Origin: a virus
Taxonomy: Duplodnaviria; Heunggongvirae; Uroviricota; Caudoviricetes
Direction: 5' to 3' (one strand)
DNA: 64,000 nt
IMG/VR virus record: IMGVR_UViG_647533110_000001
Shown: one piece after another, positions 15,117 through 64,000 of the stretch
Numbering within the stretch: position 1 is the first letter of the stretch
How the letters are laid out: each line of letters opens with the position of its first letter
The notes under the pieces: generated by a model
Told to the model about the DNA's origin: nothing
Database searches by the model: none
Seen by the model: only the letters and a program-made list of their open reading frames with translations
Position numbers and translations under genes: made by a program

Positions 15117-15429
15117 ATCAGAAAAGACTCGTATCGCTGGAACCCAATATGATAGACGAATAAAGCTCACTCCAGACCAAAAAGAATATATAAAATGGTT
15201 GAGAGAAAAGCAATTAATCAGTTACTCTAAACTTGCTAAAATATTTGGAGTGAGCAAGCGTCTTATTCAATTTATTTGTTGCCCAGACAAATATTTGAAA
15301 AATAAAGAGAGTTTAAAACAACGTAAAGCAGAAGGGCGATACAAACCTACAAAAGCAGAATGGGCAGCAACAATTCGTGAGCACAGGAGATATAAGGAAC
15401 AACTCAAAAAGAAAGGAGATATAAAATGA
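15106..15429 (+). CDS. small HTH DNA-binding protein (transposase/resolvase-type HTH), paralog of 21119..21427
   Basis: KLTPDQKEYIKWL...LAKIFGVSKRLIQFI resembles IS-transposase N-terminal HTH; ATGA-coupled to the RT gene. Confidence 0.55.
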   Translation: MPYKSEKTRIAGTQYDRRIKLTPDQKEYIKWLREKQLISYSKLAKIFGVSKRLIQFICCPDKYLKNKESLKQRKAEGRYKPTKAEWAATIREHRRYKEQLKKKGDIK

Positions 15430-22730: not shown

Positions 22731-23363
22731 TTGAACATGAATAAATACTATTTTATAAATATTGGTGCTGAAGTAATATGGCACCCTGAAAATAGTGACG
22801 AGCAGAAAGTTGTGCAAATATGCACCTCGGTTTCTTATCCTGTTGAAAATGACACATTAGTTTCTCTAATTTTTTCTGATAAAAAAGGGAGTGTAAAAGT
22901 AAAGGCCGACGAATTAACTCCAAAATTGACTGACTTCAATCAAGGGTACTGGTGCGCACTTCAAGATGCAATAAGTAATGGTGCCTCTGATATGGTTATT
23001 CAGGAAATGCTACGCAGTGCCGGATTTACATACTGGGAATGTTACTGGCATATACAAAATTCTGATTTTCAGTCAGAAAAAATATGGTCGATTATTCGTG
23101 GGATGTTTTGCCAAAATCCAGATTATATTGATTGGAATGGTGCTGATTATCCAATAAAAACGGTAGTAATCTTTGAAAATACTCCTGATGAAGAAAAGGT
23201 GACTGTATCTGTAGAACGGTTAGCGCGACAATTATTAGATGATATGGGTAATTGGAGTACACGAGAAGCAGAATTTGTAGATGAACAGATTTATTTCTAT
23301 CTGGATGAAGATACCTTTAATATGCCTGATGAAGATATTGTAGAATACTTGGAAAAACAATGA
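22731..23363 (+). CDS. hypothetical protein
   Basis: 210-aa ORF, ATGA-coupled to the methyltransferase gene. Confidence 0.5.
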   Translation: MNMNKYYFINIGAEVIWHPENSDEQKVVQICTSVSYPVENDTLVSLIFSDKKGSVKVKADELTPKLTDFNQGYWCALQDAISNGASDMVIQEMLRSAGFTYWECYWHIQNSDFQSEKIWSIIRGMFCQNPDYIDWNGADYPIKTVVIFENTPDEEKVTVSVERLARQLLDDMGNWSTREAEFVDEQIYFYLDEDTFNMPDEDIVEYLEKQ

Positions 23364-45643: not shown

Positions 45644-47026
45644 TCATTTCATCAACTCAACAACATCTTCCGGCAACATCGCATTCCCTGCATCATCTTT
45701 CGGAGCATTCTTAAGGAGCAACATCGGAACAATGGTATAGTTCTTGGCAAACGGCAATAAATTAGCCTTGCGAAGAAGTTCAGTTGTTAACTGTTTACCA
45801 TTCTCTTGATTTGTCCATTTACATTCTCCAACCAGCAGATATTTTTTATCAAGAGATTCAGCCATTACATCAAATTCCACTTGTTCAGGCTTCTTATCCT
45901 CATTGAGAACAGAACCCCACCAGCGTTTTGCCTTACCGTAAACAATTCCATTGACCATATTTCCCGTTACAGCATCCCTGCATAGTTTTTCCCAATGCAT
46001 ACTCACATACTCCGAGAAATGGGCTGCCAATGCCTGTTCTAATGGTAAACGACGACCAAGCTCGATGAACGAACGGTTAGGCACGACAAACTGATAGTAG
46101 AATGCCATAAAAGGGTCTGCAATCTTATATAGGCTCTTTTTTGCATTCTTTTCGTCAATTCCGAACGGAACATCTTTCTCTAAAAATCCGAGGTCAATAA
46201 GTTTCTTCAATGGACGTGACAGATTAGTTGCAGGCTCATTACATCTGGCAGCAATCTCAGAAAGACGATTTGCACCGGATCCGATATAGGACATGATTGT
46301 AGAAGTCTTGACAATGTCCTTCACATCATCTTGAAACAGTTTTATCGGCTCCTCGTAAAGAGTGCCATTTACAGAAAGGATATTGTGCCACAACGCATCG
46401 GAAAGTGAACTTCTGTTTTCTCGCAGTTCCCAGTAACGAGGCACACCGCCCCATACAGCATACTCTTCAACGGCACCCACAGCGTCAAGGTTCAAAGCCT
46501 CCTGAATATACGGCAAGCGTATAGGCATAAGTCTCATAATCTCATCAGCACGGCCATAGAGAGGTGCCGTAGAATCAAGAAACAGTCCATACATCATATT
46601 TTGCGATGAACCACAAAGTACAAGATTATACTTCAACTGCTTTTCATCAACAAATTTCTGCAACACTGACGGCAGTTCCGGGGATTGTTCCACCAGATAC
46701 GGAAATTCATCCAGGCATAGCGTGAAACGCTTGTCTGTGCGATAATTGACCGCACGAAACAGAGACTCCCAATCCGGATAAGTCAACTTGTCAAAATCAG
46801 GAAATACTTGTGCTACTACCTTTGCAAGTAAAGTCCTTTGGTGCTGTCCTTCCGAACGGTCAGCAAGGAAATATACATCACTGTCCGACAACACCCTTTT
46901 GATAAGTGTTGACTTACCCAATCGCCTGCGACCGTACACTACGACCAACGAGGACTTCTCTCTTGAAAGAGCATCCCTCAGTCGTGCTGTTTCTTCTATT
47001 CTATCAACGAAGTTCATATTCAACAT
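45644..47026 (-). CDS. AAA+ ATPase (Arch_ATPase/DUF234-type ATP-binding protein)
   Basis: Walker A GRRRLGKSTL; Walker B LCLDEFPYL. Confidence 0.7.
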   Translation of the reverse strand: MLNMNFVDRIEETARLRDALSREKSSLVVVYGRRRLGKSTLIKRVLSDSDVYFLADRSEGQHQRTLLAKVVAQVFPDFDKLTYPDWESLFRAVNYRTDKRFTLCLDEFPYLVEQSPELPSVLQKFVDEKQLKYNLVLCGSSQNMMYGLFLDSTAPLYGRADEIMRLMPIRLPYIQEALNLDAVGAVEEYAVWGGVPRYWELRENRSSLSDALWHNILSVNGTLYEEPIKLFQDDVKDIVKTSTIMSYIGSGANRLSEIAARCNEPATNLSRPLKKLIDLGFLEKDVPFGIDEKNAKKSLYKIADPFMAFYYQFVVPNRSFIELGRRLPLEQALAAHFSEYVSMHWEKLCRDAVTGNMVNGIVYGKAKRWWGSVLNEDKKPEQVEFDVMAESLDKKYLLVGECKWTNQENGKQLTTELLRKANLLPFAKNYTIVPMLLLKNAPKDDAGNAMLPEDVVELMK

Positions 47027-47109: not shown

Positions 47110-48900
47110 AATGTAAGGTAAGCGTCTCCAGGATGCCGTATCAGCATAAGAAAAGCAGGGTCACTGGCCCTGCTTGTTCTTTTTCCAGCGGTCTGGAAGT
47201 ATATCTCTGTACGCTTCCAGTGTGGCGGACCTCTGCAAGACATCCGCTCTGTTAAGTATGTCTGTGAGGTACTCGAAGAAGTTTATCTTGTGCAGCCTGC
47301 ATGAACATGCGAGAGAGTAGAAGATGCAGCCACGCTCTGCTCCGGCATGGCTGCCGAAGAAAAGGGAATTCTTTCTGGACAAGGATATGTACCTGTTGAT
47401 TCTCTCAATGAGATTATTGTCCCACGAGTAGTCTCCACCAGTAGTTATAGCTTCGATACCATCCCATTCGTTGAGCATGTATTTGGCGGCCTTGAACATC
47501 TGCGACTTTGGAGGATATTTCCGAGGTTGAGACTTGATCTTGAGAAGCATCTCCTTCATCTGCCTGAGTATATGAGACGCATACTCCTGTCGCCACCTCA
47601 GATTATCTTTGACCGTCCAGCCGTCTTCTCCGATCTTATGCTTATGTTCATTCTGATAGAGCTGATTGGCTAGAGTCAGTATCTTGTCTGCATCAGCATT
47701 GCCTTTCATGTCCAGGAACTCTCTCTTGCAATGCTGAAGACAGGCTAGTCTTAATATCTTTCCTCCGGACTGTGCTGCGACTTTCTTGTAAGCTCCCAGG
47801 CCATCTGACTGTATCGCTCCGCTATATCCCTTGAGCTCTTTCAGTATTACCTCTTCGCTTCTTGAACCATCATCATAGAAGAAGTATGCCAGGCCGAGAT
47901 GTGCTGCTACAATCACCCAGACATAACCCTTGCGGCTTCCCTTGCCGTCATTCAGTTCCTTCTTTACGAGAACTCTGTGGTAGGTCTCATCGCAGCAGAG
48001 ATAGTTATCTTCTTTGACTGCCTTCTGCATCGCCTTGTATAAGTTTTCGAACAGAAGTGCTGTCTTCTTCAGCAGCCCGTGAGCGGTCTGTTTGTCGATA
48101 TTGAAGCCGTTCTCGTTAAAGTACGCCACGATACGTTCCACCGGCATTGAGTACAGATAACGGAGCTGGGCTATGCCTGAGATGAACGACCCGTCGAAGC
48201 TGGAGTTCTGAAGAGGTGCAAGAGGAGCCTTTGCGCTTACAAGCTTATCTCCATCCTTTACTGTGTGGATATAATACAAGTGTTTGATGAACCTTGGAGG
48301 TATCATCTCATAGCGGACAGTCTCTCTTGTACTGAGCGGCTTCCGTCCTTCCATGCCGTCAGGATACACGTCATGCTTGACTGTCTCCATCTCGAAATGC
48401 ATATTACGCTTTGCACCATTGTTACCGCGGGACTTGCGCTCAACTTCCTTCTGAGCAATCTCTTCTTCTGTCTTAGGAGTTACTGGAGTAGATGCTTGTT
48501 TCTCTGACTTCTTCTCAAGAAGCTTTGACATGCCACGAACTTGATTGTTGGCCTTGTCGAGACTCTTGTCGCGTTCTTTCAGGAGAGACTCCAGATTCGC
48601 TATAGTCTCGCGAAGCTCTGAGATGGTCACGACCATGGCATTCATGCTGGCAGACATGTTGTCAATAGTGAGTCTCAGCTGATCGTTTGTCGCATTCGAC
48701 GCCTTCAGCCGAGACTCCAAAAGTTTGATTATCATGTCCTTTCCCATACATCTAAGGTACGAAGAAAAACGAGATATGTAATAGTTTTTAAGATTTATTT
48801 TATTGGTAATATTCTTAACCATCTTAAAAATATACACTTAAATATTTTATAATCAATATATTATAAGAAAGGTAATTTTAATGGAGAAACAAATAAGGAA
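47110..48900 (-). mobile_element. IS66-family insertion sequence, single ORF; boundaries approximate
   Basis: terminal GTAAGCG motif at ~47116 as in IS66 inverted repeats; opposite inverted repeat not found; no tnpA/tnpB ORFs. Confidence 0.45.
47161..48747 (-). CDS. IS66-family transposase
   Basis: N-terminal coiled coil; DETYHRV, GYVWV, DGLGAY and CLQHCKREF (zinc/H..RRxF) motifs; C-terminal DNNLIERINRYISLSRKNSLFFGSHAGA..YSL; start chosen at MGKDMII. Confidence 0.8.
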   Translation of the reverse strand: MGKDMIIKLLESRLKASNATNDQLRLTIDNMSASMNAMVVTISELRETIANLESLLKERDKSLDKANNQVRGMSKLLEKKSEKQASTPVTPKTEEEIAQKEVERKSRGNNGAKRNMHFEMETVKHDVYPDGMEGRKPLSTRETVRYEMIPPRFIKHLYYIHTVKDGDKLVSAKAPLAPLQNSSFDGSFISGIAQLRYLYSMPVERIVAYFNENGFNIDKQTAHGLLKKTALLFENLYKAMQKAVKEDNYLCCDETYHRVLVKKELNDGKGSRKGYVWVIVAAHLGLAYFFYDDGSRSEEVILKELKGYSGAIQSDGLGAYKKVAAQSGGKILRLACLQHCKREFLDMKGNADADKILTLANQLYQNEHKHKIGEDGWTVKDNLRWRQEYASHILRQMKEMLLKIKSQPRKYPPKSQMFKAAKYMLNEWDGIEAITTGGDYSWDNNLIERINRYISLSRKNSLFFGSHAGAERGCIFYSLACSCRLHKINFFEYLTDILNRADVLQRSATLEAYRDILPDRWKKNKQGQ

Positions 48901-50789: not shown

Positions 50790-51030
50790 TTGTCATTTAT
50801 TATCGTTTCGCTGCTGCCGTGCGACCTCTCGTGGACTTATTTTCCCGCAAAGGTAATAGGCTGCTCCAATCTTGCCAATGCCGGCGTTCCGCCGCGAGTG
50901 AGCCGCAAAAATCTTCCTCTCCGTCTGTCGAGCGTATTTTCCCGCATCAGCCTTGTCAGATTGTTTCCGCCACCTTTTGGAGGCAGAAAAATAAATCCCA
51001 AAGGTCGCAAACAGGTTGAACAAAGGGAAA
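50670..51030. repeat. direct repeat copy 1 (~360 bp), about 97% identical to 53588..53955
   Basis: aligned by eye; identical except for a handful of substitutions and one 1-nt indel. Confidence 0.9.
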
Positions 51031-51058
51031 TAGTAACAATAAAAACAAAAATAACATT

Positions 51059-51280
51059 ATGAAAACAGAGATTAGGCAGAATGGCAAAGTGATACTATCG
51101 AGTACAGACGATATATCCATTCCGATGATTTTCAAAAACTTATGTGGTAAGAACTTTTCTGGAAACGACTATCAAAACTATCTCAGAACAGTTTGTCAGG
51201 ATATTGGTGTTACGACGGGGGCGATTGAGTATTATGCCGACAACGTTTTGATTGAGAAAGCAACTATTCCTGAATTTTAA
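51059..51280 (+). CDS. hypothetical protein
   Basis: 73-aa ORF, first gene after repeat copy 1. Confidence 0.4.
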   Translation: MKTEIRQNGKVILSSTDDISIPMIFKNLCGKNFSGNDYQNYLRTVCQDIGVTTGAIEYYADNVLIEKATIPEF

Positions 51281-51292
51281 AAACTATATACA

Positions 51293-51865
51293 ATGAAAAG
51301 GAAAGAGAAAGCAGCAGTAGATGAATTTGTTGCCCTTGTAGGAGGCAAGACATGGGAGCCTGTACGCCATAAATGTATGGGTAAATGGAGTGGTATGACC
51401 GATTACGGTTTTGTCATAGACGGACGGATAACGCTCTTTGTTTCCAATAGTATGGCATACTTTAAGAAACGGATTCGTGAGTGGATTAAGTCGATACATA
51501 CTTTTGAAGCGAAGAAAGATTGCTACCTTCGCTTGCTACGTGAACAAATTGAAAAGGACAACGACAAGGCAAAGGACGAAAAGTTAAATCCTGTCAGACT
51601 GATAGACATTGGCATCTTATCCCCCGAAAGCAATAGCCCGTTTGATTTTTTTACCCCTTATGTGTTAGTCGAAATAAACGGCAGGCGGTTCAAGCATCAA
51701 ACAGCGGAGTTAAGTTGCGCTATTATGGTGGATAGTTTGGCAGGATACCTTGAAGAATGCAACTGCAAGGATATATACACGGCAAGGGCAGTGCGTACAC
51801 CTGACTACATTTTTTGCGGTGTGCGGTTTGACTCCCGTGATAATATGTATAAGATTGGAAAGTAG
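51293..51865 (+). CDS. hypothetical protein
   Basis: 190-aa ORF. Confidence 0.5.
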   Translation: MKRKEKAAVDEFVALVGGKTWEPVRHKCMGKWSGMTDYGFVIDGRITLFVSNSMAYFKKRIREWIKSIHTFEAKKDCYLRLLREQIEKDNDKAKDEKLNPVRLIDIGILSPESNSPFDFFTPYVLVEINGRRFKHQTAELSCAIMVDSLAGYLEECNCKDIYTARAVRTPDYIFCGVRFDSRDNMYKIGK

Positions 51866-52004
51866 AGATTAATGATGTCTGAAGAAGTTATCACTTACAA
51901 CGATAACTCCAGTCGTTTTAAAGGACGGCATCAGCATTTGACCTACTAAATACATAAGTTCCCAATTTACGATTGGAGACTTATGTATTTTTCTGTATGG
52001 AAAA

Positions 52005-52358
52005 CTAATCAAATAATCGCTGACTTATCATCCAGTCATTAAGCACGTCCGGATCTACACGATTTGTAAGATTCACATTTTTACTCAAACAACCGATTTT
52101 CTCACCTCTTAAATAAATAACTGGTGGGGTTAATGTATTCGGATTGTATGGACTTAACGATGAACTGGGACTTCCATATATGGAATACCGATTCTTGAAA
52201 GATATACTTGAAAAGTGACTACCGTATATATTCTCGTTGTTGGATATGGAATCAGGAGTAGATGTGTTCAACGACAATCTGCCTAAATACAAACCGTCAT
52301 TTGCCAATAGAAACGATTCTTTCCTTGAAATTCTGGTATCTAAACCTATTCTATCCAT
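52005..52358 (-). CDS. hypothetical protein
   Basis: 117-aa ORF. Confidence 0.4.
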   Translation of the reverse strand: MDRIGLDTRISRKESFLLANDGLYLGRLSLNTSTPDSISNNENIYGSHFSSISFKNRYSIYGSPSSSLSPYNPNTLTPPVIYLRGEKIGCLSKNVNLTNRVDPDVLNDWMISQRLFD

Positions 52359-52377
52359 GCCCTATGATTTAACGCCA

Positions 52378-52863
52378 TTATTTAATAATGCCATAACGTC
52401 TTTTAGTTGCATTATCGAACACCTCTGTCTCTCTTAGAAACTGCATTACCCGTTCCCTGTCTTCGGAAATCAGGCAACCTTTCAGTTTACCGTTCTTTTC
52501 CGTGATTTTTAATTTTGAAAGTTCGAATATATCGGAACAATCCAGCCAACTGTCATAGTCCAGAATATCACGATAGTTCCGAACCATCAAAGGATATTGG
52601 CAGTCCAGTAGCTCTTCCGACCTCTTGGAAGAATCTATTTCCGAATTTATCAGTAAGGCACCGATAGCGACACCTTCCGGAGTAAAGCCGATAATAACAA
52701 TATATTTATTGCGGTCTTTATATCCGTCTTTTAGTATCAGTCCGTCCTCTTCGTCCAAGGGGACATAAATAATGTCACCAATTTTGACTGATGACATATC
52801 TACTTGCTCAGCTTTGGCCATTATAGCTTTCAGCCTTTCCAATGCACCGGTTTTGTCGTCCAT
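52378..52863 (-). CDS. candidate toxin partner of Panacea-domain protein
   Basis: 161 aa, starts 6 bp after the Panacea gene stop on the same strand. Confidence 0.45.
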   Translation of the reverse strand: MDDKTGALERLKAIMAKAEQVDMSSVKIGDIIYVPLDEEDGLILKDGYKDRNKYIVIIGFTPEGVAIGALLINSEIDSSKRSEELLDCQYPLMVRNYRDILDYDSWLDCSDIFELSKLKITEKNGKLKGCLISEDRERVMQFLRETEVFDNATKRRYGIIK

Positions 52864-52868
52864 TTGAT

Positions 52869-53459
52869 TTAAGATAAAGCGTTCTTGACAATCTGCTTTT
52901 CTCGGATATAATCTACCATGTCCTCGGTAGCTTTTCCTGCCCGGGCTATATCTATAATGGTAATGAAGTTCTTTTGAGGATCATCCTGAATGCGTGTCAT
53001 CGCCTCTTCCCATGCCGAGTCATGCGACAAATCGGACAAGTCATAAGGGTCTGTATCCTTATATTTAGCGATAGCAGCGTCAAGACAACGTTTGTTGGCA
53101 CCTGATATATAGTCCATATCGGGTACGGCAGAAGTATATACCTTCTTGTCACGAACCTCTATGTCTGAAAGGAACTCGTCAAAATTCCCGTCCAAGGGTT
53201 TGCCTTCTGCAATTTGCAGTGCCTTGTAGGTATAGGCTGGCACCGGGCCATGCTTCAATGCTCTGAAAGAGTCTTCGACAATCACTTTGCCATATTTGAC
53301 AAGATGGTCCTGTTGGGCAAAATAAAGTATTTTAAATAACTTTATATAGTCCACTCCTTGAGTGAAACTCTGCATGATGTAGAGTACCACTGCTCTTATT
53401 TTAGCAATCTGTATAGCTGTTTTCATTTCAAAAAAATCTATGCGATTACAAAGATACAA
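52869..53459 (-). CDS. Panacea-domain (DUF4065) protein, putative antitoxin
   Basis: KLFKILYFAQQDHLVKYGKVIVEDSFRALKHGPVPAYTY matches the Panacea core KLxKLLYFA...AW.YGPV. Confidence 0.55.
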   Translation of the reverse strand: MYLCNRIDFFEMKTAIQIAKIRAVVLYIMQSFTQGVDYIKLFKILYFAQQDHLVKYGKVIVEDSFRALKHGPVPAYTYKALQIAEGKPLDGNFDEFLSDIEVRDKKVYTSAVPDMDYISGANKRCLDAAIAKYKDTDPYDLSDLSHDSAWEEAMTRIQDDPQKNFITIIDIARAGKATEDMVDYIREKQIVKNALS

Positions 53460-53587
53460 CTAATTTGCTGAATAATACGCTCATGATACAAAAAAAATAG
53501 TCCGTTGCATTTTTTTACGACATTTAATATAGTCGTCATTCTGAGAGTAATAGTCTGCAATTATCAAGAGATGGGCCAATCCACCCG

Positions 53588-53955
53588 ATTCCACCTCCCT
53601 TTATAGTTCACCTTCCTCCGATTATAGTACGGGCAATCCGTTCCGATTGTCCATTACCCTGTTTTAACACCCCTGTTTTACAGTTTTATTCATCCCTTTC
53701 TATTTGATTGTCATTTATTATCGTTTTGCTGCTGCCGTGCGACCTCTCGTGGACTTATTTTCCCGCAAAGGTAATAGGCTGCTCCAATCTTGCCAATGCC
53801 GGCGTTCCGCTGCGAGTGAGCCGTAAAAATCTTCCTCTCCGTCTGTCGAGCGTATTTTTCCGCATCAGCCTTGTCAGATTGTTTCCGCCACCTTTTGGAG
53901 GCAGAAAAATAAATCCCAAAGGTCGCAAACAGGCCGAAAAAAGGGAAAAAAAGAA
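53588..53955. repeat. direct repeat copy 2 (~360 bp), leader of the methylase-helicase gene
   Basis: same sequence as 50670..51030; ends just before ATG 53966. Confidence 0.9.
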
Positions 53956-53965
53956 AGGTTAAATT

Positions 53966-56900
53966 ATGAGTTACAACAAATTGAAATCATTGGTAGCGAA
54001 CGTGGAAGCCATAGAAACGGCAATGAAAATCCAAGTTCAAGGCAGGCAGGCCACTGCGGAAGAAAAAGAAATTTTATCCCGATATTCTGGTTTCGGGGGT
54101 ATCAAAGAAGTGTTGAATATAGGTACGGACAAGCCCATAGGTGGTGATATGCAAGAACCGATACAAAGATTGCAGGAGTTAATCAATGCTTACCCTCATT
54201 TCACAGAACCCATGCGACACAATGTCATAGAGGGTATCAAAGCATCTGTACTGACAGCATTTTACACTCCTAAATTCCTTGTTGATGCAGTGGTGCGGCA
54301 GATACACGCCACGTTCAGCGAAAACGGCCTCAAAATGCGTTCATTTCTCGAACCGAGTGCAGGTATAGGCGGTTTTCTGCCCATAGCCATGTCCGGCACG
54401 TATGGCTATGCCATTGAGAAAGATCTCATTTCGGGGATGATACTTTCCCTGCTCCATGAGAACACGCTAACACGGACGGCTGCATTTGAAACCATTGGAG
54501 AACAAGGTTTTGAGCATACAACTTTCGATGTCATAGCCTCCAACATCCCGTTTGGCAATTTCCGGGTATTCGATGCGGAGCTGTGGAAGAAAGGCGGTAT
54601 GTACGAACAGGCCACCAAGACCATACACAACTACTTTTTTGTCAAAGCGATGGAGTTGTTGAATGAGGGTGGATTATTGGCTTTCATCACATCGAGGGGC
54701 ATAGCCGACACGCCCGGTAACAAGTTCGTGCGTGAATATCTTGTAAATCATGCAGACCTGATAAGTGCAATCCGTCTGCCCGATATGCTTTTCATGCAGA
54801 CAAGCGGTATAGAGGTAGGCAGTGACCTGCTGATATTCCAAAAGCACACGCACAAGACGGTACTCTCACAACGGGAACAACTGTTTTTACAAGTAGGCAG
54901 GGAAAAGGCGGACGCCATAGGCACAATGACCGAATACGCCAACAAATTGTTTACCATGCCGAAAACTACCCTTGCAACAGGTAGCCGCATTGTACAGAAC
55001 CAATACGGAAAATATGTGCGCAAATACCAATGGCAGGGAAATGAAAATGCCATGTCGCAATATCTCGCCGCACTGCTGAAACTCGACTTTGGCCGATATT
55101 TCCGCAAAAGTCTTTTCACTGGGAACGGACAGGGCAGCGAACATATGCAAATGTCCCTTTTCGGGAATGTAGCGATGAAACAAGTAGAAAAAGGTAAACG
55201 AGCCTACACGGATGGGGTGGAAGCATGGATGAAAGACGGCGCAATGGTACTGTTTGAGGGCCAGGTGGGTACTATCCAATATCGAAAATCAAGTCTTTAT
55301 CAAGAGGTAGCCATTGATTTTGTGCCGGTGGACGAGGGTAAGGTCAATACAGATAGGGCGAAAGACTATTTTCCTATACGCAAAGCATACTTTGAACTGT
55401 CAATCAAAGAAAGGGAAGAACAAAAAGAGGATAACGGGTTGCGTAGAGAGTTGAACGCCCGATACGATGCCTTTGTTGCCAAATGGGGCTGTTTCCACGA
55501 GAACGACAACAAGGAGTTTATCATGCTTGACAGCCTCGGTGTGGAAGTCTTTACAATAGAAATGCAGCTTGGAAAGGATTTAGTCAAGTCCGATATCATG
55601 CGTGAACCTGTGGCGTTCAAGAAGATAGACTCGAACAAAAGGCTGACACCGATTGAAGCGTTGGCAAGCAGCTTGAATTTCTACGGCAGGGTTGATATGG
55701 ACTACCTGATGCAGTCCACGGACAGCACCGAGGAAGAAATCATCGGCGACCTCAAAGGTGAGATATTTTACAATCCTGCTATTGGGGAGTGGGAGCACAA
55801 AGGCAAGTTCCTTTCAGGCAATGTCATAACCAAATGCAAGGAGATAGGTTCTTACTTGTCCGAACTCACGGACAGGGAAAAAGATTGGACGGAAACTGCT
55901 GTAAGGGCTTTGGTGGATGCGACACCCGAAGCGATACCCTACGAGGAACTCGACATTAACATGGGTGAGCGTTGGATTGACACAAAGTTATACGCCGATT
56001 TTGCAACTGAACTTTTCAAGGTAGAGACAAGTGTAATGTATTTCGATGTGAACGACACCTACATGGTACGTCTGCAAAGTTACTCTCCGGTGGCTTACAA
56101 CACCTATTTCGTCCGCAACTATAATGGTGAGGATTTGTTTGTTCATGCCCTGCATGATACTGTACCCGAAATTACGAAAAAGATATACCGCAATGGTGAT
56201 AAGGTGCGTGTGCCGGACGAGGAAGCCATACAAGAGGCAGCCACCAAGATACAGGAGATTAGAGACCGTTTCAACTGCTGGCTTGACAGGCAGCCGATAG
56301 AGGTTCGGGACGAGCTGGTAAGGGTATATAACGAGCGTTTCAACTGCTATGTTAGGCCGCACTATGACGGTTCGGCACAAACCTTTCCGCAGCTCTCTTT
56401 TGAGCAATTTCCATACGATAGCCTCTATCCCTCACAGAAAGATGCTATCTGGATGATTAAGCAGAACGGAGGCGGTATCTGTTGGCATGAGGTAGGCACA
56501 GGCAAGACGATGATAATGTGTGTTGCCGCTTACGAAATGAAACGTCTCGGACTGGCACACAAGCCGCTTATTATCGGGCTGAAAGCCAATGTACACGAAA
56601 TCGCCGATACGTTCCGTAAGGCATACCCTACGGCCAAAGTTCTCTATCCGGGCAAGGACGATTTTACCGCTGCCAACAGGCAAGAGGTCTTTTTAAAAAT
56701 CAAGAACAACAACTGGGACTGCATCATACTCACGCACGACCAGTTCGCCAAGATACCGCAGTCAGAAGAGACCATGATAGATATATTCACGGAAGAGCTT
56801 GCCGATGTGGAACGTAACCTTGAATTTTTGGAGCAGTCCACTATGCGTTACCGTAGCGGAAAGATGCAGGAGGGGTTAGAAAAGCGCAAACAGAACCTTG

Positions 56901-57082
56901 GGGCTAAATTACAAGAACTGCGTATGAAAATCAATAATCGGAAAGACGATGCTGTGGACTTCCACACAATGGGAATAGACCATATTTTTGTAGATGAATC
57001 GCATTATCAGAACTTTTTTGAAAATTCGGCTTTTGTTGGTAAGATGTTAGTGTATAATATGTTACAATATTATATTTTCTGA
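53966..57082 (+). pseudogene. N6-DNA methylase/SNF2-helicase fusion gene, 5' part, interrupted by an insertion at ~57010
   Basis: MTase motif VIASNIPFGNF, helicase Walker A HEVGTGKTM and DESH; frame leaves homology right after DESH and stops; continuation resumes at 62994. Confidence 0.7.
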
Positions 57083-57418
57083 TTAATATCTATAGTAGGT
57101 TTGCAGAAGAAATTTAATTTGTTATTTTGGAAAGTACAGAGATTTACAATTCTATTATAAAATGGGGCTTTAATGCTTATCTATTGAATCATAAAAGCAT
57201 TTCCTCTAAAAGACAAAGGTAAGATAAATGCAATATCAAATTCAATAATCCCAACTTATGCTTGCATATTCCAAAGCATAAAACATACACTATGCTGATA
57301 GAAGGAATAAATAGTTCTTTCCACCAACTATTAATAGCAATCATCAATAAGACCTTAGGTTAAGAAAACAACTTAACAAAAAAACGAAATCAGCAATATT
57401 ATCTCAATCTATTTGTTT

Positions 57419-57979
57419 TTAGTGAACGATTAGATCTTTTGGAACAATTGCATCAATTTCATCTTCTTCTGTTGTTGATTCCTTGTTTGTTCTCAACGCT
57501 TTCTCAGCTCGTTTTACAGCAGCAGGAAAAGTATGAGGTGCTTTAATATACAGCAAATCTTCTTCCTCTCGTAATTCATTTCTTTTATCTACAATTTCAT
57601 TATCATTCAACAATCCGGCTAAAATATCTGTCATTAGAGATTCGTACTTATTCCTTAGGTCATGTAATTTTGCTGCAAAATTTTTGTTTAATTTAGCCTT
57701 TTCTTCAAGTTGTCCATCTTTATAGCGCACTGTAAAATAAGACAAAAGTATTGCTAAGAAAGCTGTAATTGATCCTGATATTTGAGGCTCGATAAAAGAT
57801 AATATGGAACTCAAAGCACCACCTGTCGTAAGGACAGACAACCAGCATGTAATATTTTTCACGCATCGATCTTTTTCAAGATATATATCCCCTTGAATCT
57901 CTTGAATTTTGTGTGACCACGTTACTTTAACATAACGTCCTTCTATACATTTATATAACAAACGAGTTGATTCATTCAT
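57419..57979 (-). CDS. 2-TM protein, candidate SLATT-like effector
   Basis: two adjacent TM helices (ITCWLSVLTTGGALSSIL / ITAFLAILLSYFTV) then charged helical tail; overlaps upstream gene stop. Confidence 0.45.
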   Translation of the reverse strand: MNESTRLLYKCIEGRYVKVTWSHKIQEIQGDIYLEKDRCVKNITCWLSVLTTGGALSSILSFIEPQISGSITAFLAILLSYFTVRYKDGQLEEKAKLNKNFAAKLHDLRNKYESLMTDILAGLLNDNEIVDKRNELREEEDLLYIKAPHTFPAAVKRAEKALRTNKESTTEEDEIDAIVPKDLIVH

Positions 57980-58571
57980 GATTTAATAATCTTTTTATTA
58001 GCATTCGTCTTAGTGGCTCAGACTTCAGATAGTTTCGGAGCTTAGACTTTGCAATTCCTATACCCAACTTTGACTTATACATTTTTCTGATACTTTCTAT
58101 GTCACCAATCTCAATGTAATATTCTATTCTTGCATCATCACCATGCCGTTCGGCAGGCCATGGTGCTTCATTATACCTCTCATAGTAGGCTACCCAATAG
58201 AAGAAAGAACTGAGATTTGAGACAAAACTTTGTAACTGAAATCCATGTGGATAATACTCTGAAAATTTTTCAGGTAGCCCCAGACACAAAGTTCCATCTA
58301 CATTGATATGCAAATCCCCATGAAAAATTTGTTTCCTTTGGGCAATCTTCTTTATCTTGTTATCAGGATTATAAACTATAGGATACTCATTCCTGTTTTT
58401 CATTCGCCACAGTCGTACCTCTATTTCAAAAGTTGCCTTAATAATAGGTTTACTTTCATAACGATGATTAATAAAGAAAGGTCCATGTATTATGGACTTT
58501 TCTTTATCATATGTGAGCATTGGATAATTATCCCTTAGCCAATTCTGTTCTTCTTCGTTGAGCCGAACCAT
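57972..58571 (-). CDS. hypothetical protein in NTase operon
   Basis: 199 aa, overlaps both neighbours. Confidence 0.45.
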   Translation of the reverse strand: MVRLNEEEQNWLRDNYPMLTYDKEKSIIHGPFFINHRYESKPIIKATFEIEVRLWRMKNRNEYPIVYNPDNKIKKIAQRKQIFHGDLHINVDGTLCLGLPEKFSEYYPHGFQLQSFVSNLSSFFYWVAYYERYNEAPWPAERHGDDARIEYYIEIGDIESIRKMYKSKLGIGIAKSKLRNYLKSEPLRRMLIKRLLNHE

Positions 58572-59476
58572 GGACGACTTGGATTTTGTTGAATATATAC
58601 TCCTTGATTTTCTCGTTTTGAATTCTCTTTCGTTTTAGGGAACTCTTCTCCAAAAATTTTAATCCATTCTTCTGATGCCTCCATAGGCTTATCGTTATCA
58701 TTGTATTCTAAAGCCTTTTGGGCACGATTAAATGCTTTGTCAATATAAGATTTAATACAATCATTACATCTTGAACGCATATAATCAAAAAAGTCGAATA
58801 CAATTTTATCGTATCCTATATTATTTGCTCCAGACGCATAGTTGGCATCCAAAAATGCTATTATATCATCCATCCTCTCACAAGATTTATAACTCATTGA
58901 AGGAGTATTGTGCGCCCACGCTTTAAGCATCTTGGCTAAATCACGCGTAAGACCAGAAGTTGCTTTATTGGATTCGTTAAACTTGTCTATTTCCATTCTA
59001 GGATCAAAATAATCCCACGAGCCACCATTCTCTGAGTTAGGAATAAGAAATGTCCCATCTTCTTTTTCCAAAGCAGGAAGAAGCTCTACATTATGATGGT
59101 TTTCTGCGAATTGCACGAGAACTACTTTACCCCAAGCTTTGATTTTGTCCGTAGTGGTATATTTCTCTTTTAACACGTCTTTTATTTCTTGAAGCAAAGC
59201 GCATTGTCCGTTACTCTTATAGCCATCATATTTTTTAAAAGTATCTTCAGGTATCTTGAATAGGACATCAATATCCTGTTCTTCTGTAAATGGCCGTACA
59301 TTTGTTTTGGTTTTATATGAACCAAATAGATACTTTTTACTACTATCATAAGCTCCTTCTCCATAGTAGAATTTGTAAAGCTTTTCACATACACCAGTAT
59401 ACTTTGTCTGTGCATCTTCTTGTTGACCAGATGTCAACGTGATGTTCGATAAAAAATCTTTGAATGAATTTTCCAT
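58535..59476 (-). CDS. SMODS/CD-NTase-like nucleotidyltransferase
   Basis: pol-beta NTase signature FGSYKTKTNVRPFTEEQDIDVLF (GS..x..DxD); 313 aa, the size of CBASS cyclases / SMODS. Confidence 0.55.
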   Translation of the reverse strand: MENSFKDFLSNITLTSGQQEDAQTKYTGVCEKLYKFYYGEGAYDSSKKYLFGSYKTKTNVRPFTEEQDIDVLFKIPEDTFKKYDGYKSNGQCALLQEIKDVLKEKYTTTDKIKAWGKVVLVQFAENHHNVELLPALEKEDGTFLIPNSENGGSWDYFDPRMEIDKFNESNKATSGLTRDLAKMLKAWAHNTPSMSYKSCERMDDIIAFLDANYASGANNIGYDKIVFDFFDYMRSRCNDCIKSYIDKAFNRAQKALEYNDNDKPMEASEEWIKIFGEEFPKTKENSKRENQGVYIQQNPSRPWFGSTKKNRIG

Positions 59477-59659
59477 TAAGAATCGTTTTTAATTTTATTA
59501 AAAAATAGCAAATTTCGTGCCAACACATTAACATATTTAGAATTTCAGACATAAGAAAGGACTCTTTGTCTGATTGGCACAATTTAGTTGGAATATCAGA
59601 CAAAGTGTCCTCATAGGTTAGGGAAATATGCCAACTAAGAATATTTAAAAGTATAAGAA

Positions 59660-60718
59660 TCAGTCGGCTGCCCCAATTAGAGGTAATCCAAGAAATTCTT
59701 CAAGTCCCCCTTTGTTAGCCATTTTCCATCTTTTTTGTAACTTCCTTTGATCTTCATTTTCGAGTGTCTCTAACGCTTTTGATTCCTGTTCGGTTGTTAT
59801 GTCCAAATATACCATTGTCGTTTGGATACATTCATGTCCGAGTAGATACGATATTTGTGCTATATTCATGCCATTTTCGAGCCAATGTGAGGCTTTGGCA
59901 TGTCGGAACTGATGGGCATGCAGATTCAAGGGTACTTCTTTACATATTTTTTTCGCTATTGCGGCATACCGCTTCAATAGTTTATTCACATTCTCGGCAG
60001 ACATTGGTACGTAAATCCCCCTGCTTTTGGAATAGAACAAAAGGGCATCCGGATTATTGGGATTCGGATGGCATTCCGCAAGGTATTGTTTTATGTACTG
60101 TACTGGTTTGGCCAAAAGTGGTATAGGACGCTTTTTTCTGCCTTTTCCGATAACGATAATTCGCGGTTTCGGACCATCTGTAAAAATATTGCCAATTTTC
60201 AAAGAAAGGAGTTCGTTAATACGGACTGCCGTAGAATACAAGGTCAGCATTAGGGTATAGTCTCTGAGACCGCGAATCGTCCTCTGGTTGGGAACTGTGA
60301 AAAGGGCATTCACGGCCATCTTGCTAAGCCCCACGACTTTTCTCTTGGGTGTTTTCTGATTAGGCACTGTCTCTGCCTGAAGATAGGAAGTCATAAACGC
60401 TATGTCTTTATCAGCCATATATTTTAGGAAGGCTCTTAGTGCCGACAGCCTTACATTACATGTTGCAGGGCTGCAAGACCTGTGTTCTTTTAACCATAGA
60501 ATCCATTCATTCATGTTTTCTAAAGAAAAGCACTGGGCACTCAATGTCTTCGGAGAGATCTGCTTGACACTCCTCAAAAACATCACATAAAGTGCCACTG
60601 AAGTTTCGTAGTTTCTTTTGGTATAAGGACTGCATGCCTTTATTGATGGCACGTGGTATTCAAGCCATTCATTCAGGTATTTTGCAATTAGCAATGCTTG
60701 TGGATTAATCTTTTTCAT
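59660..60718 (-). CDS. tyrosine recombinase (RIT trio, third)
   Basis: R (AVRINELLSL), HAHQFRH, LGHECIQTTMVY with catalytic Tyr. Confidence 0.8.
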   Translation of the reverse strand: MKKINPQALLIAKYLNEWLEYHVPSIKACSPYTKRNYETSVALYVMFLRSVKQISPKTLSAQCFSLENMNEWILWLKEHRSCSPATCNVRLSALRAFLKYMADKDIAFMTSYLQAETVPNQKTPKRKVVGLSKMAVNALFTVPNQRTIRGLRDYTLMLTLYSTAVRINELLSLKIGNIFTDGPKPRIIVIGKGRKKRPIPLLAKPVQYIKQYLAECHPNPNNPDALLFYSKSRGIYVPMSAENVNKLLKRYAAIAKKICKEVPLNLHAHQFRHAKASHWLENGMNIAQISYLLGHECIQTTMVYLDITTEQESKALETLENEDQRKLQKRWKMANKGGLEEFLGLPLIGAAD

Positions 60719-61712
60719 ATTGCGTATTGGGTATTAGAAATTCATACATTTCTGCATCAGCAGATTCTATAATATCGGAGATTCCCGGTGTCAAGGAGTA
60801 ATAGGCCATTGTACTTTCCACCTGCTTATGTCCCATGCTTTTGCTCAAGGCCAGTAACTTGTCATGAACTGTAAATCCCTGATGATTCCAACTATTGATA
60901 TTCTCGATAGCATAATTGTGTCTTAATTCATAGGGTATGGCTTTGGAACTATTGCAACTTTTCCATAAAACTCTAAAGTGGTATGTTACCCAGGCAGGAG
61001 AATGTGCCTTGTCATCCAGAGTAGGGAAAAAGTACTCACGATTTGGAAGTATATCTGATATTCTGTCATTGTAAATATGCATTAGCAAAAGCATCGTGTC
61101 ATGAAGTACGACAAAATGCTGGTCATATCCTTTTCCTGACTTTATTGACACGACTCCACTTTCAAGGTTTACATCATCGCGTTTAAGCCTTATGGCCTCA
61201 GTTGTCCTCATCCCTGAACTATACAGTAAGCGGAAAAAAACCGGAAGCGTTATCCTCTGTATTGTCGACAGGATACCTTTTCTTGGTTTTATATTGTCAC
61301 AGGCAGTGAAAAATCTAATCAGTTCTTCATGCGTGAAGGCGTGAGGTATATAAGTTTTTGGTGATGACTTCGGTACTGGCGGAAGAGTTATATGGGTCTT
61401 TCCTCGTTTTTTTAGGTATTTGAACAAGTCAAGCACGGGATAAATCCTGGATACACATGAGTTTGTGCTCTCGGTTTCCCGCTGTTTGCACCATCTATCT
61501 GCTATTTCTTGAGTCAGTTCCGTATGTCCGGGATATTCTCTGGCACAAAAATGATCGAATAATACCACGTTTTTCACATAACTGTAGCTTGTACGTCCTG
61601 ATATCTTACGGTATCTGATATATCCTTCGATGGAATTGGCAAGAAATGATTGTAACTTCATTGATAAAACACCTCCTTTCTCACTGGGTAATTTTCTATG
61701 CTTAGGGCACAT
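60705..61712 (-). CDS. tyrosine recombinase (RIT trio, second)
   Basis: MRTTEAIRLKRDDV, YELRHNYAI, MGHKQVESTMAYY; overlaps both flanking recombinase genes. Confidence 0.75.
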   Translation of the reverse strand: MCPKHRKLPSEKGGVLSMKLQSFLANSIEGYIRYRKISGRTSYSYVKNVVLFDHFCAREYPGHTELTQEIADRWCKQRETESTNSCVSRIYPVLDLFKYLKKRGKTHITLPPVPKSSPKTYIPHAFTHEELIRFFTACDNIKPRKGILSTIQRITLPVFFRLLYSSGMRTTEAIRLKRDDVNLESGVVSIKSGKGYDQHFVVLHDTMLLLMHIYNDRISDILPNREYFFPTLDDKAHSPAWVTYHFRVLWKSCNSSKAIPYELRHNYAIENINSWNHQGFTVHDKLLALSKSMGHKQVESTMAYYSLTPGISDIIESADAEMYEFLIPNTQYEKD

Positions 61713-62872
61713 TCTTTGAGGCTTTTAAACTCGGCATTAAGATAAGGATTAAGAGACTTTGGGGAGGCATGTCCCAGCGTGGAGCTTATTACAGGCTGTT
61801 GGACTCCGGCTCGAAGCAATGATGTTGCCACATGATGGCGGAAAAGGTGTAATCCCTTCCTTTCAGAGGCTTTGAGCCTTATACCAGCCTTATGCATGAT
61901 TTTTACACATATTGCATTAAGATTGGATGTATGGAGCTTTCTATATGGAGAATTCACAGTAAGGAATACGTATGGTTCATAGCACTTAGGGCGTTCCTCT
62001 ACCAGATAATCATAGATAGCATTGCCAACAACAGCTCTAAGCGGTAGTGTTAATGCCGTTCCTGTTTTCGATTGGGTAATAATAATCAGGTCTCCTTCCC
62101 AATCAAAATCTTTCATAGTCAATGCCGATATATCGCAGCTACGCAGTCCTGTGTACAATGCAATGGTCGCAATAGCTTTGTCCTGTAGAGATATGGTCTT
62201 ATCATGTTCCAACACATGCTTTATTGCCTCGATCTCAGCTTCAGTAAGGTACTGTATGTTCTTTCTACTATTCGGTATGGTGGGCAGGTATGACATTATA
62301 TGTTCTATAATGCCATCATTGTAGTAAGGGACACATTTTTTCAATCCATATTCCACACTATATTTAAATGAATGACTTCTTATCGGTATATCATTTGGGG
62401 AAAACACCATTTGAACGGCTTCCTCATCTATAGCATCCAAGGAGTTTATTCCATATTTCTGTAAAGTTAAAAAGAACGAACTCATGGCTACTTTAATGGT
62501 TGGAACCATTTTTGTGTCTTTTCCAATGAATTTACATGCTATGTCCACGACTTTCATAAACTCTTCACATAGCTGATGGTAGTTGGATGGCTTGTGATAG
62601 TGTTTGTGTCCATCAGGTAAAGAAGCTTCCTCATCATAACGCTGAATGATACGGAGCAAACGGCTTTTATTGGCAAAAGTATGTTTGTTGTGCCATAACT
62701 TCGCTAACGTATGCTCTATATCAGCATAATTTTGCCATTCGTAACACATGGAGTTGCTTACAATCCACTTGGTTAAGTGGTTGATGTACCATATATATTG
62801 GGAAGTGTAACCAACTTCCTTCATATAGGCAACAAGACCAATAACTTTTTCTTTTAAATGCAGTATATCCAT
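61658..62872 (-). CDS. tyrosine recombinase (RIT trio, first)
   Basis: LRSCDISALTMKDF, LHLFRHHVATSLL, LGHASPKSLNPY. Confidence 0.8.
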   Translation of the reverse strand: MDILHLKEKVIGLVAYMKEVGYTSQYIWYINHLTKWIVSNSMCYEWQNYADIEHTLAKLWHNKHTFANKSRLLRIIQRYDEEASLPDGHKHYHKPSNYHQLCEEFMKVVDIACKFIGKDTKMVPTIKVAMSSFFLTLQKYGINSLDAIDEEAVQMVFSPNDIPIRSHSFKYSVEYGLKKCVPYYNDGIIEHIMSYLPTIPNSRKNIQYLTEAEIEAIKHVLEHDKTISLQDKAIATIALYTGLRSCDISALTMKDFDWEGDLIIITQSKTGTALTLPLRAVVGNAIYDYLVEERPKCYEPYVFLTVNSPYRKLHTSNLNAICVKIMHKAGIRLKASERKGLHLFRHHVATSLLRAGVQQPVISSTLGHASPKSLNPYLNAEFKSLKECALSIENYPVRKEVFYQ

Positions 62873-62993
62873 AACACATTAATATTAGTGACACGGGTAA
62901 TATACAAAAATAATCAGAACTTATCATGATATTAATTTGCCGATTTTTAGTAACATCAAATACAAAAATGGTATAATAAAAAAGTTCTGATAA

Positions 62994-64000
62994 TGCGACA
63001 AATCCAAAATTCCGGATTTATCGCATATTTTCAAGAACTTAATGTTCCAGACACGCCATAATCGTGTGGCAGGTATCGGCAACACCAAAGGCTCTCAAAG
63101 GGCAATGAACCTCTTGTTCGCCATTCGTGACATCCAACTTCGTACAGGTCGTGACCTTGGGGCTACGTTTCTGTCGGGTACAGTGGTGGTAAATGCACTG
63201 ACCGAACTATATGTGATGTTCAAGTATTTGCGTCCGCAGGAGCTTCAACGGCAACGGATTAGCTGTTTCGATGCGTGGGCAGCCATATTCACAAAGAAAA
63301 CGGCAGATTATGAGTTGAACGTGACAGGCTCGGTGAAGCGCAAAGAGCGTTTTCGTACTTACATCAAAGTACCGGAACTGGCAATGTTCCTGCGTGAGAT
63401 TACGGATTACCGTACAGCCGACATGATAAATCTTGATGTGCCTGAGAAGAACGTGCGTTTCCTTTCTTATCCCCCGACAATTGAGCAGGAGGAAATGATA
63501 GGACGCTTGGTATCTTTTGCCGGTAGCGGCCAGTGGGAGGACTTGGGGCTTGACGTTCCGCAACCCGACAACCTCGACAAGGCTAAAATGTTGGTTGCGA
63601 CCAATGTAGCCCGAAAAATGGCTCTTGATATGCGCTTGTTGGGTTGCAAGTTCAAGGATGATGCCGATAACAAGGCTTCTATCTGTGCGAGGACAATCTA
63701 TGACTACTATATACGCTCGAATGACAATCGGGGTACACAGTTCGTGTTCAGCGACCTTGGTACATACAAACCGAACGAATGGAACATATATACCGACATC
63801 AAAGAAAAGTTGGTACGGCTCGGTATTCCTGCTGATGAAATACAGTTTATCCAATGCGCCACTACCGAGAGGACAAGAAAAAAGCTGTTTGAAGAAATGA
63901 ATAACGGCAAGGTGCGAGTTCTTTTTGGAAGTACGACCATGTTAGGCACAGGTGTGAACGCCCAACAAAGGGCTGTGGCGGTGCATCACCTTGAAATACC
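62994..64000 (+). pseudogene. methylase/SNF2-helicase gene, 3' continuation, runs off window
   Basis: open frame: ...SHIFKNLMFQTRHNRVAGIGNTKGS...FSDLGTY...VRVLFGSTTMLGTGVNAQQRAVAVHHLEIP (helicase C-terminal motifs). Confidence 0.65.

Follow-up and report, generated by a model that had tools for sequence, protein, structure and literature searches.

The trio-type mobile elements known as RIT elements (Van Houdt et al. 2009/2012; Ricker et al. 2013; definitions in PMC3414803, PMC8138268 and PMC10214605) have as their archetype the genes Rmet_1271-1273 of Cupriavidus metallidurans CH34, and their target specificity, empty site and movement are listed as 'NT' in Table 1 of PMC10214605. Gut Bacteroidales carry integrative and conjugative elements (ICEs) of the GA1 type, which encode a type VI secretion system (T6SS) and, beside its genes, the 1659-aa MhgA protein with an N6-adenine methylase and an SNF2 helicase (Garcia-Bayona et al. 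2021, PMC8102008). The mhgA gene is interrupted in 31% of GA1-only strains and in 73% of GA1+GA2 strains; the inserts were termed 'transposase insertions', the sole one specified being a 2463-bp, reverse transcriptase-encoding insert, and one B. fragilis strain has a 'much larger insertion' (PMC8102008; bioRxiv 10.1101/2024.03.08.584156). The present analysis concerns the 64,000-nt stretch of the Caudoviricetes record IMGVR_UViG_647533110_000001 (the window), in which a 6,022-bp insert with three tyrosine recombinase genes and a cyclic-oligonucleotide-based anti-phage signalling system (CBASS) splits a methylase-helicase gene. With high confidence we consider this insert a RIT element that was integrated by tyrosine-recombinase site-specific recombination at the D-E-S-H | I-F-K-N codons of an mhgA-type gene of a GA1-type ICE. 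The interrupted gene and the insert are arranged as follows.

53966..57082, plus strand: open reading frame (ORF) of 1038 aa containing VIASNIPFGNF, HEVGTGKTM and VDESH
53966..57004, plus strand: mhgA-like N-terminal part (N-part), codons 1-1013, the last residue being the His of DESH in helicase motif II
57004..63025, minus strand (all six genes): putative mobile element of the RIT family with CBASS cargo, 6022 bp, delimited by a clean indel and by the unit of contig L003
63027..64000, plus strand: mhgA-like C-terminal part (C-part), from codon 1014 (IFKNLMFQ...), SNF2 C-lobe, running past the window end

A sequence-only reading of the window had proposed that one N6-methylase/SNF2-helicase gene is split here by an insertion of about 6 kb. 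The ORF at 53966..57082 does carry the N6-methyltransferase motif, the Walker A motif and DESH that were ascribed to it, and it matches the Pfam models N6_Mtase, Eco57I and ResIII/SWI2_SNF2; the protein of the N-part aligns in full, at 98% identity, to P0001, a protein of 1659 aa. The His codon of DESH occupies 57002..57004, and similarity is lost immediately behind it, where 25 unrelated, element-encoded residues and a stop codon (57080-57082) follow. The frame of the N-part is open again from 62994, reads SHIFKNLMFQTRHNRVAGIGNTKGS... from 63021 and encodes the helicase C-part up to the window end. The GC content is 0.46-0.47 in the flanks and 0.28-0.44 within the insert.

Deletion of 6,022 bp rejoins one open frame. 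The joined protein (1013 + 324 aa) matches 5797 homologs, the best of which are single proteins of ~1660 aa with an uninterrupted junction that reads ...VDE(C/S)H(I/M/V)FKNL..., and both P0001 and P0250 are uninterrupted 1659-aa proteins with N6_Mtase and helicase domains. Alignment to an uninterrupted homolog, which had been suggested as a check, reconstructed the empty site as a clean 6022-bp indel. When joined as 53700..57004 + 63027..64000, the window aligns gaplessly over 4259 bp, at 98.05% identity, to the contig L001 (uninterrupted, 1659 aa). Joined as 50966..57004 + 63027..64000, it is 99.6-99.9% identical to three uninterrupted alleles from three samples (L197-L199), whose site, GTAGATGA ATCGCAT ATTTTCAAGAAC with GATGA preceding ATCGCAT, equals the window minus 6022 bp exactly. 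The one-gene reading holds because homologs spanning the junction and an exact empty allele exist. A naturally bipartite gene, ending near 57082 and followed by a separate helicase gene near 63000, or an assembly mis-join of a 6-kb block can be excluded, and we assign it a negligible probability. Beyond the stop codon of the ORF at 53966..57082 nothing speaks for it; the homologs and the empty allele contradict it, and the insertion architecture recurs in over 100 independent contigs, which differ in sample and assembler.

In length, domains and neighbours the target matches an mhgA-type gene of a GA1-type ICE of gut Bacteroidales; genes for a KAP-NTPase, TssD and Rhs adjoin the uninterrupted alleles in L001 and L197. 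The published mhgA interruptions concern the same type of gene and, as here, frequent independent events, whereas the trio element, the fixed site in motif II and the defence cargo are not described in those papers.

The ends of the insert contain the following elements.

56998..57004, plus strand: left 7-bp direct repeat ATCGCAT; p1-p6 (56998-57003) are the predicted target-side exchange hexamer, p7 (T, 57004) goes with the element arm
57005..57019, plus strand: inverted-repeat arm of the cargo end, TATCAGAACTTTTTT
62978..62992, plus strand: inverted-repeat arm of the recombinase end, AAAAAAGTTCTGATA
62993..62999, plus strand: internal inverted exchange heptamer ATGCGAC (reverse complement GTCGCAT), a putative second, unused crossover site
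63000..63019, plus strand: attachment-site centre AAATCC-AAAATTCC-GGATTT, with 6-bp inverted arms and an asymmetric 8-bp spacer
63020..63026, plus strand: right ATCGCAT; p1-p6 (63020-63025) are the predicted element-borne hexamer, p7 (63026) is target

The boundaries are ambiguous inside the 7-bp repeat, 57005..63026 being equally valid. As had been noticed from the letters, TCGCAT stands at both joins (56999..57004 and 63021..63026) and forms the outer 6 nt of inverted repeats: the 21-nt TCGCATTATCAGAACTTTTTT has exactly two copies in the window, in inverted orientation at 56999..57019 and 62978..62998, where dinucleotide shuffles expect 0. The element thus has 15-nt inverted arms (TATCAGAACTTTTTT), each abutting a 6-bp exchange hexamer, and one of its ends also bears AAATCC-N8-GGATTT and a second hexamer. 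The arm TATCAGAAC is kept at both ends of all related elements. The 22 bp at 62999..63020, which the sequence-only reading took for an irregularity of the right junction, are present but are not irregular. They consist of the attachment-site centre 63000..63019 plus 62999 and 63020, and have a hexamer on either side, the two being mirror images and each leading into the arm TATCAGAAC; they are the centre of the element's palindromic attachment site.

A joined form of these ends was found in the metagenome contig L003, whose 6052 nt with a 30-nt terminal overlap yield a 6022-bp unit that is 99.5% identical to the insert of the window. Its ends join as AAAAAAGTTCTGATAATGCGATAAATCC-GGAATTTT-GGATTTATCGCATTATCAGAACTTTTTT, a 28-8-28 palindrome. 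The joined ends hold two mirror-image crossover sites, as seen at the level of the contig, the circle itself being predicted. The contigs L100 and L160 also contain joined-end junctions. In L160, two different family members (7268 bp + 3510 bp) lie in tandem in one mhgA site and are linked by a hexamer-22bp-hexamer junction.

The element carries three adjacent recombinase genes on the same strand, with PF00589 matches in all three proteins.

61658..62872, minus strand: RitA-like tyrosine recombinase (RecA), 404 aa, PF00589, two N-terminal helical domains followed by the catalytic domain
60705..61712, minus strand: RitB-like tyrosine recombinase (RecB), 335 aa as the longest ORF, PF00589
59660..60718, minus strand: RitC-like tyrosine recombinase (RecC), 352 aa, Xer-like, PF00589, 45 residues after the catalytic Tyr

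We filed the insert, by sequence, as a candidate member of the RIT family because of its A-B-C gene order, the positional best matches to reference trios and the two N-terminal domains of the RitA-like protein. Scanning species-representative genomes with an alignment of RecA gave 59 loci in Bacteroidota, Bacillota, Spirochaetes, Ignavibacteria and Patescibacteria, and the A-B-C order, with no other, was found in every sufficiently long locus among them. RecA, RecB and RecC are weakly similar to one another and are the best matches of genes 1, 2 and 3, respectively, in a trio of the Agrobacterium pRi plasmid (E-values 9e-22, 2.5e-17 and 1e-36) and in a Priestia plasmid trio (7e-88, 4e-104 and 6e-121); RecC is also the reciprocal best match to the third gene of both trios. 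The Agrobacterium trio (413/307/333 aa) has 4-bp overlaps and 30-nt terminal repeats. The longest ORFs overlap here by 55 bp (A-B) and 14 bp (B-C), as compared with 4-8 bp in the RIT definition; an internal Met start of RitB at 61661 gives a protein of 318 aa and an A-B overlap of 4 bp, the B-C overlap staying at 14 bp, and the equivalent gene in contig L005 was called as 318 aa with a 4-bp overlap. The terminal inverted repeats are 21 nt when perfect or 32 nt at 84%, described members having 34 to ~50 bp.

Two sequential core-binding domains are a hallmark of RitA (PMC8138268). The AlphaFold2 (AF2) model of RecA has helical bundles at residues 1-82 and 97-194 (pLDDT mostly 75-94) and a catalytic domain from ~211; with an overall pLDDT of 70 and a pTM of 0.40 the packing of these domains is uncertain. 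RecC extends 45 residues beyond the catalytic Tyr by sequence, where the RIT definition has an extra conserved C-terminal helix in RitC. The catalytic Arg and Tyr are recognisable by eye in all three proteins. NCBIfam has no RIT models and returned a weak GmtY match only. With RITs the element shares the same-strand A-B-C trio, the terminal inverted repeats, the long RitA with its two N-terminal helical domains and a minimal unit of ~3.5 kb.

To our knowledge, RITs have been described essentially as cargo-less trios. The present element differs from them in its defined coding-motif target, its insertion in both orientations and its readable double-core palindromic attachment site, and in the anti-phage genes that lie, in many members, in the stretch from ritC to the far repeat; its hosts are ICEs of gut Bacteroidales, as opposed to plasmids of alpha- and beta-proteobacteria. 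In the Agrobacterium (L192 7691-7722) and Priestia (L193 8309-8358) trios, too, a short palindrome abuts one terminal inverted repeat, and the one in Priestia, CAACAAATCCAAAC|GTTTGGATTTGTTG, has the AAATCC/GGATTT motif in common with the element here. The asymmetric 'extra' centre may be a general feature of RITs. Five copies of a 44%-identity trio occur in the single chromosome of Salegentibacter sp. oa5 (CP051246; L025-L029), with weaker RecA'/RecB'-like matches on one side and, in L025, L028 and L029, a RecC'-like match on the other, a layout that looks like a RIT within another RIT.

Scanning metagenomes with AAGTTCTGATA-N7-AAATCC-N8-GGATTT gave at least 120 loci. Among the matches listed, xxxTTCAAGAAY follows 126 of the 143 junctions (63 distinct C flanks), the other element end follows four and other sequence 13; in all 126 helicase-abutting junctions the 22-bp centre adjoins the C-part; and in 37 clean single insertions with helicase on both sides, the trio lies beside the C-part in 20 (as in the window) and in the reverse orientation in 16, one being unorientable. 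The six-gene element is present at 88-99% identity in many metagenome contigs, and relatives with 49-99% RecA identity occupy the same DE(C/S)H|xFKN codon of diverged homologs. In L002-L012 and in a 61%-identity clade (L014-L019, including B. xylanisolvens XB1A), this codon is targeted in homologs that are 36-99% identical, with the trio beside the C-part or the N-part and the 22 bp beside the C-part either way. The relative in XB1A measures 7.3 kb and occupies ~4.897-4.904 Mb of NC_021017.

The right flank of the target, TTCAAGAAC, resembles the element arm TATCAGAAC. According to our model, the junction of the circle would be GTTCTGATA-N7-AAATCC-N8-GGATTT-N7-TATCAGAAC, and either of its crossover sites would pair with the target GAYGA-[RNNNCA]-Y-NNN-TTCAAGAA. 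With both mirror-image sites able to pair, the element could enter in either orientation, so that the 22-bp centre would always come to lie beside the C-part.

The two orientations might instead be two states of one locus, that is, of a shufflon-like cassette inverting in place. Perfect 21-nt inverted repeats do bound the segment, recombinases are encoded within it and both orientations occur in one target allele; moreover, the spacer is flipped relative to the trio in a few lineages (the window, L002, L162, L097, L179 and L175), which is the expected product of an inversion between the N-junction site and the internal site. We nevertheless regard this explanation as very improbable, and as a source of the two orientations it was mostly rejected on account of the spacer. 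The asymmetric 8-bp spacer mostly has a fixed orientation with respect to the trio and is turned round with respect to the target when the element is reversed (L015 vs L153, L007 vs L008); since it moves with the element, the whole unit including the 22 bp was re-inserted and not inverted in place. Empty sites and joined-end junctions exist, and the gene is restored in neither orientation. In a few lineages, including that of the window, the segment between the N-junction site and the internal site has probably been inverted now and then, at most as a side reaction to integration of the whole unit.

Some copies are rearranged. Two samples hold a CBASS-bearing copy with a 22-bp (C-type) junction at both ends (L005 11060-11110, L009 6165-6215), of which one end abuts the mhgA C-part and the other an ATPase gene (AAA_14/DUF4143) at its start codon (TCGCAG|ATGCTCGAC), with no mhgA N-part in the vicinity; this arrangement is probably due to inversion or to exchange between two copies. 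L144 has a window-type allele in its N flank and another allele in its C flank, which suggests exchange between elements in different ICEs. The 22-bp junction also occurs at both ends in L086, L077, L087 and L145, where the helicase C-part is abutted by both ends (L086, L087) or by one end (L077, L145); such contigs reflect either genuine rearrangements or an assembly in which the two orientations were collapsed.

The sequence exchanged at the junctions can be followed through these copies. By comparison, TCGCAT in the window is the putative 6-bp exchange region of the tyrosine-recombinase reaction. At the N-junction, insertions with helicase sequence on that side have T as p7, the base that follows the hexamer. 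Among the matches listed, p7 of the C-junction is constant in 20 of 23 C-flank groups and the hexamer in seven of 23. The N-side hexamer is constant in five of seven N-flank allele groups; in the allele of the window it is GTGCCA five times and ATCGCA once, the C-side hexamers there being ATCGCA, GAGCCA and GTGCCA. The internal heptamers vary among copies and resemble the Glu-wobble/Cys-or-Ser/His codons of earlier targets. Comparison of the copies shows that the hexamer of the target is retained beside the N-part and that those on either side of the 22-bp centre move with the element, being renewed from former targets. The variable 6 bp cover the Glu wobble position, the x of DExH (Cys or Ser) and the CA of His, and as they fall on such tolerant positions the footprints would be nearly neutral.

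Three other interpretations of the hexamers were discarded. TCGCAT as a plain target duplication of the transposase type does not agree with the two junction hexamers differing in most other copies. The window is not an exception to the hexamer rule, as the GTGCCA of L001 might imply, since L197-L199 and cluster members carry native ATCGCA. A symmetric heteroduplex as in Tn916, with 50:50 segregation, is a poor fit to the allele-specific N-side hexamers. ATCGCA is native to the sub-lineage of the window (P0250, P0241 and P0251, P0250 being an uninterrupted DESH protein), and its 98%-identical sister has GTGCCA; these three changes in five bases suggest an old footprint. In the uninterrupted homolog P0002 (L196, site ~3482), the site reads GATGA GAGCCA A GTAATGAAAAAT and encodes DESQVMKN, so that the His of DExH is lost and GAGCCA, a common element-borne hexamer, is present; P0002 may be an imprecise excision scar. 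The DNA of P0002 (DESQVMKN) and of P0023 (DESH) is compatible with excision scars.

A similar rule is known from Tn554 and the SE elements, where the target 6 bp are kept at one junction and donor-derived 6 bp appear at the other (PMC10214605). By analogy, the exchange here would tolerate heterology and be biased as in Tn554 and SE elements, and hexamers from earlier targets would therefore be carried along. Insertion would split mhgA, presumably inactivating it, and provide the ICE with a CBASS system, and the element, having no transfer genes, would spread by riding the ICE. What goes beyond sequence comparison in these steps we infer. Tn554 and SE elements likewise have a strong target preference, tyrosine recombinases and no true target duplication, and they, too, hitch-hike on ICEs because they have no transfer genes of their own. 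The 6-bp fingerprint found here is a likeness of behaviour, which by itself makes the element no member of that family, and a strand bias like theirs is putative. The recombinase sets differ: in Tn554 and SE elements a recombinase of ordinary size is accompanied by a large one and by a small accessory protein (TnpC/Srap), and in SEs also by a catalytically dead Tfp, whereas the present element has three normal-sized recombinases and no fourth conserved gene, its 3505-bp forms consisting of the trio only.

Mismatches in the overlap are also tolerated, and junction sequences carried between sites, by IntDOT of CTnDOT (PMC2034462, PMC2817482) and in the coupling sequences of Tn916. Unlike here, each of these systems relies on one integrase, which has arm-binding domains, and on an excisionase; none uses a palindromic double core as its attachment site, and their choice of target is loose in comparison with one codon of one gene family. 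The GInts of the Tn6571 family, genomic islands that hold three integrases (PMC5385486, PMC10121019), are also multi-integrase, non-conjugative, defence-carrying and site-specific, and are known defence carriers in E. coli (PMC10121019). Their genes, however, are ginA/B, a ginC that lacks catalytic residues and the small ginD, and they occur in Gamma- and Betaproteobacteria; the present element lacks a fourth gene, has catalytic Arg and Tyr in all three recombinases as judged by eye, and finds its best matches in RIT-type trios.

Regulated excision might also rebuild mhgA, for instance at ICE transfer, as in a domesticated reversible switch (like B. subtilis skin or the 'regulatory switches' of phages); the insertion would then control ICE exclusion or anti-restriction rather than parasitise the gene. 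The constant codon boundary, from which precise excision restores the frame, and the functionally mild exchange of 6 bp (Glu wobble, DExH x, CA of His) would suit such a role. Uninterrupted alleles that are 99.9% identical to the window exist, their ATCGCA differs at three of five adjacent bases from the 98%-identical sister allele as an old footprint would, and the state of mhgA correlates with whether GA1 and GA2 ICEs reside together (PMC8102008). However, at least four unrelated defence cargos, or none, on one backbone and homologs of 36-99% identity are typical of a selfish horizontal element. The orientation is random (20:16), tandem and rearranged copies occur (L160, L005, L144), no linked regulator or excisionase was found, and the empty alleles are possibly ancestral. 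A domesticated switch is therefore the less likely explanation, and we consider it improbable; a site-specific mobile element remains the preferred one.

Several points weigh against this preferred explanation or parts of it. Movement is deduced from variation in the population. If one sample contains both orientations, the circle of L003 could be an artefact of the de Bruijn graph, because the hexamer-22bp-hexamer block (34 bp) exceeds k=31. Both junction hexamers of the window are identical, which makes the hexamer rule unreadable from this copy. The identity of the target as BF2858/mhgA is based on the 1659-aa length, the domains and the TssD/KAP-NTPase neighbours in L001/L197. RecB has, by eye, a Tyr at the expected first His of the HxxR box, and catalysis by all three recombinases is predicted. 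The trio used for comparison was that of Agrobacterium, which fits the published definition, in place of the archetypal RitA/B/C of C. metallidurans. Finally, an active CBASS operon and loss of MhgA function are assumptions.

The remaining three genes of the element encode the CBASS cargo.

58535..59476, minus strand: predicted CBASS oligonucleotide cyclase, SMODS/CD-NTase-like, 313 aa (PF18144 3.9e-28; PADLOC 2.8e-58)
57972..58571, minus strand: predicted CBASS E2-like protein, Cap2-type E2-only, 199 aa (PADLOC E2 2.2e-21; no Pfam match)
57419..57979, minus strand: predicted CBASS effector, 2TM SLATT_4, 186 aa (PF18186 1.4e-37; PADLOC 2TM effector 1.4e-42; NF033632)

By PADLOC and Pfam, a CD-NTase/SMODS cyclase here adjoins an effector and is accompanied by an E2 protein. 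The 'short' form of CBASS type II, as reportedly set out by Millman et al. in 2020, consists of a cyclase, an E2-only Cap2 and an effector. The present operon likewise combines cyclase, E2-like protein and 2TM effector, each matched by a PADLOC CBASS model; it differs in that the system is cargo of a RIT element and in that the cyclase is under the NCBIfam cut-offs (CBASS_cyclase_b, 1.2e-25, under the curated cut-off). The element is apparently intact. Its CBASS-bearing form was found in metagenomes only and in none of the GTDB species-representative genomes, which contain no full-length RecA relative above 61% identity and one 124-residue fragment at 73% (L065).

Complete family members fall into the following size classes.

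3505 bp: trio only, the commonest size class
~5940-6023 bp: CBASS
6245-6284 and 7313 bp: PDC-M49 A+B (1e-250)
6645 bp: NsnA/PD-T4-2_A-like gene and a partner
7264-7378, 8789 and 9796 bp: 655-aa protein and two ThsB-like TIR proteins (Thoeris-like)
5044 bp: unknown 296-aa protein

The predicted cargo thus consists mostly of known or candidate anti-phage systems. Literature searches on trio or three-integrase elements in Bacteroides gave no description of this element, and literature searches gave no report of defence cargo for RITs or for this locus.

A gene-splitting mobile element is an ordinary type of event, and interruption of mhgA has already been published; the element type is under-studied. 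As far as the literature shows, it is new that the large insert belongs to the RIT family, that it homes to an exactly defined site in motif II, that a palindromic attachment site with a double core explains the 22 bp, that the hexamers follow a Tn554/SE-like rule, and that the element, nested in an ICE, carries defence cassettes which can be swapped. We tentatively propose, as a possibility that is rather doubtful in its full extent, that RITs move via a circle with a palindromic double core and a Tn554/SE-like biased 6-bp exchange, and that one Bacteroidales clade shuttles CBASS, Thoeris-like, PDC-M49 and Nsn/PD-T4-2-like cassettes into the DExH codons of mhgA. If this is true, the clade would arm the host of the ICE and at the same time disable a gene to which a part in exclusion among T6SS-bearing ICEs has been ascribed. 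RIT elements occur commonly in bacteria of many groups, and this locus and its relatives give a precise attB, a reconstructed attP, both orientations and a rule of hexamer inheritance, which make the RIT mechanism directly testable. For mhgA, which has been linked to the co-residence of T6SS ICEs, the hitherto unexplained 'large insertion' type would be identified, and nesting in a conjugative element would be a route for small defence cassettes between Bacteroidales species. A compact three-gene system with several kb of cargo, a defined 25-30-bp site and entry in either orientation may also be of use as a tool.

A second recurrent interruption of mhgA homologs was seen in L200-L202, at ...HHLEIPW|RPADMEQ (residue ~1337), just upstream of helicase motif VI. 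The insert is a same-strand group II intron with a 555-aa ORF (RVT_N, RVT_1, GIIM), and it accounts for many 1345-aa '...VRHEVA*' homologs and for the published 2463-bp reverse-transcriptase insertion. Such an intron may splice and need not inactivate the mhgA homolog. Its site would lie two codons past position 64000, outside the window. Upstream of the methylase-helicase gene, the window contains a 422-aa RVT_1 reverse-transcriptase ORF (15426-16694), a 545-aa C5 cytosine DNA methylase (23360-24997), an ATPase_2/DUF234 protein (45644-47026) and, on the minus strand, an IS66-family transposase (47161-48837).

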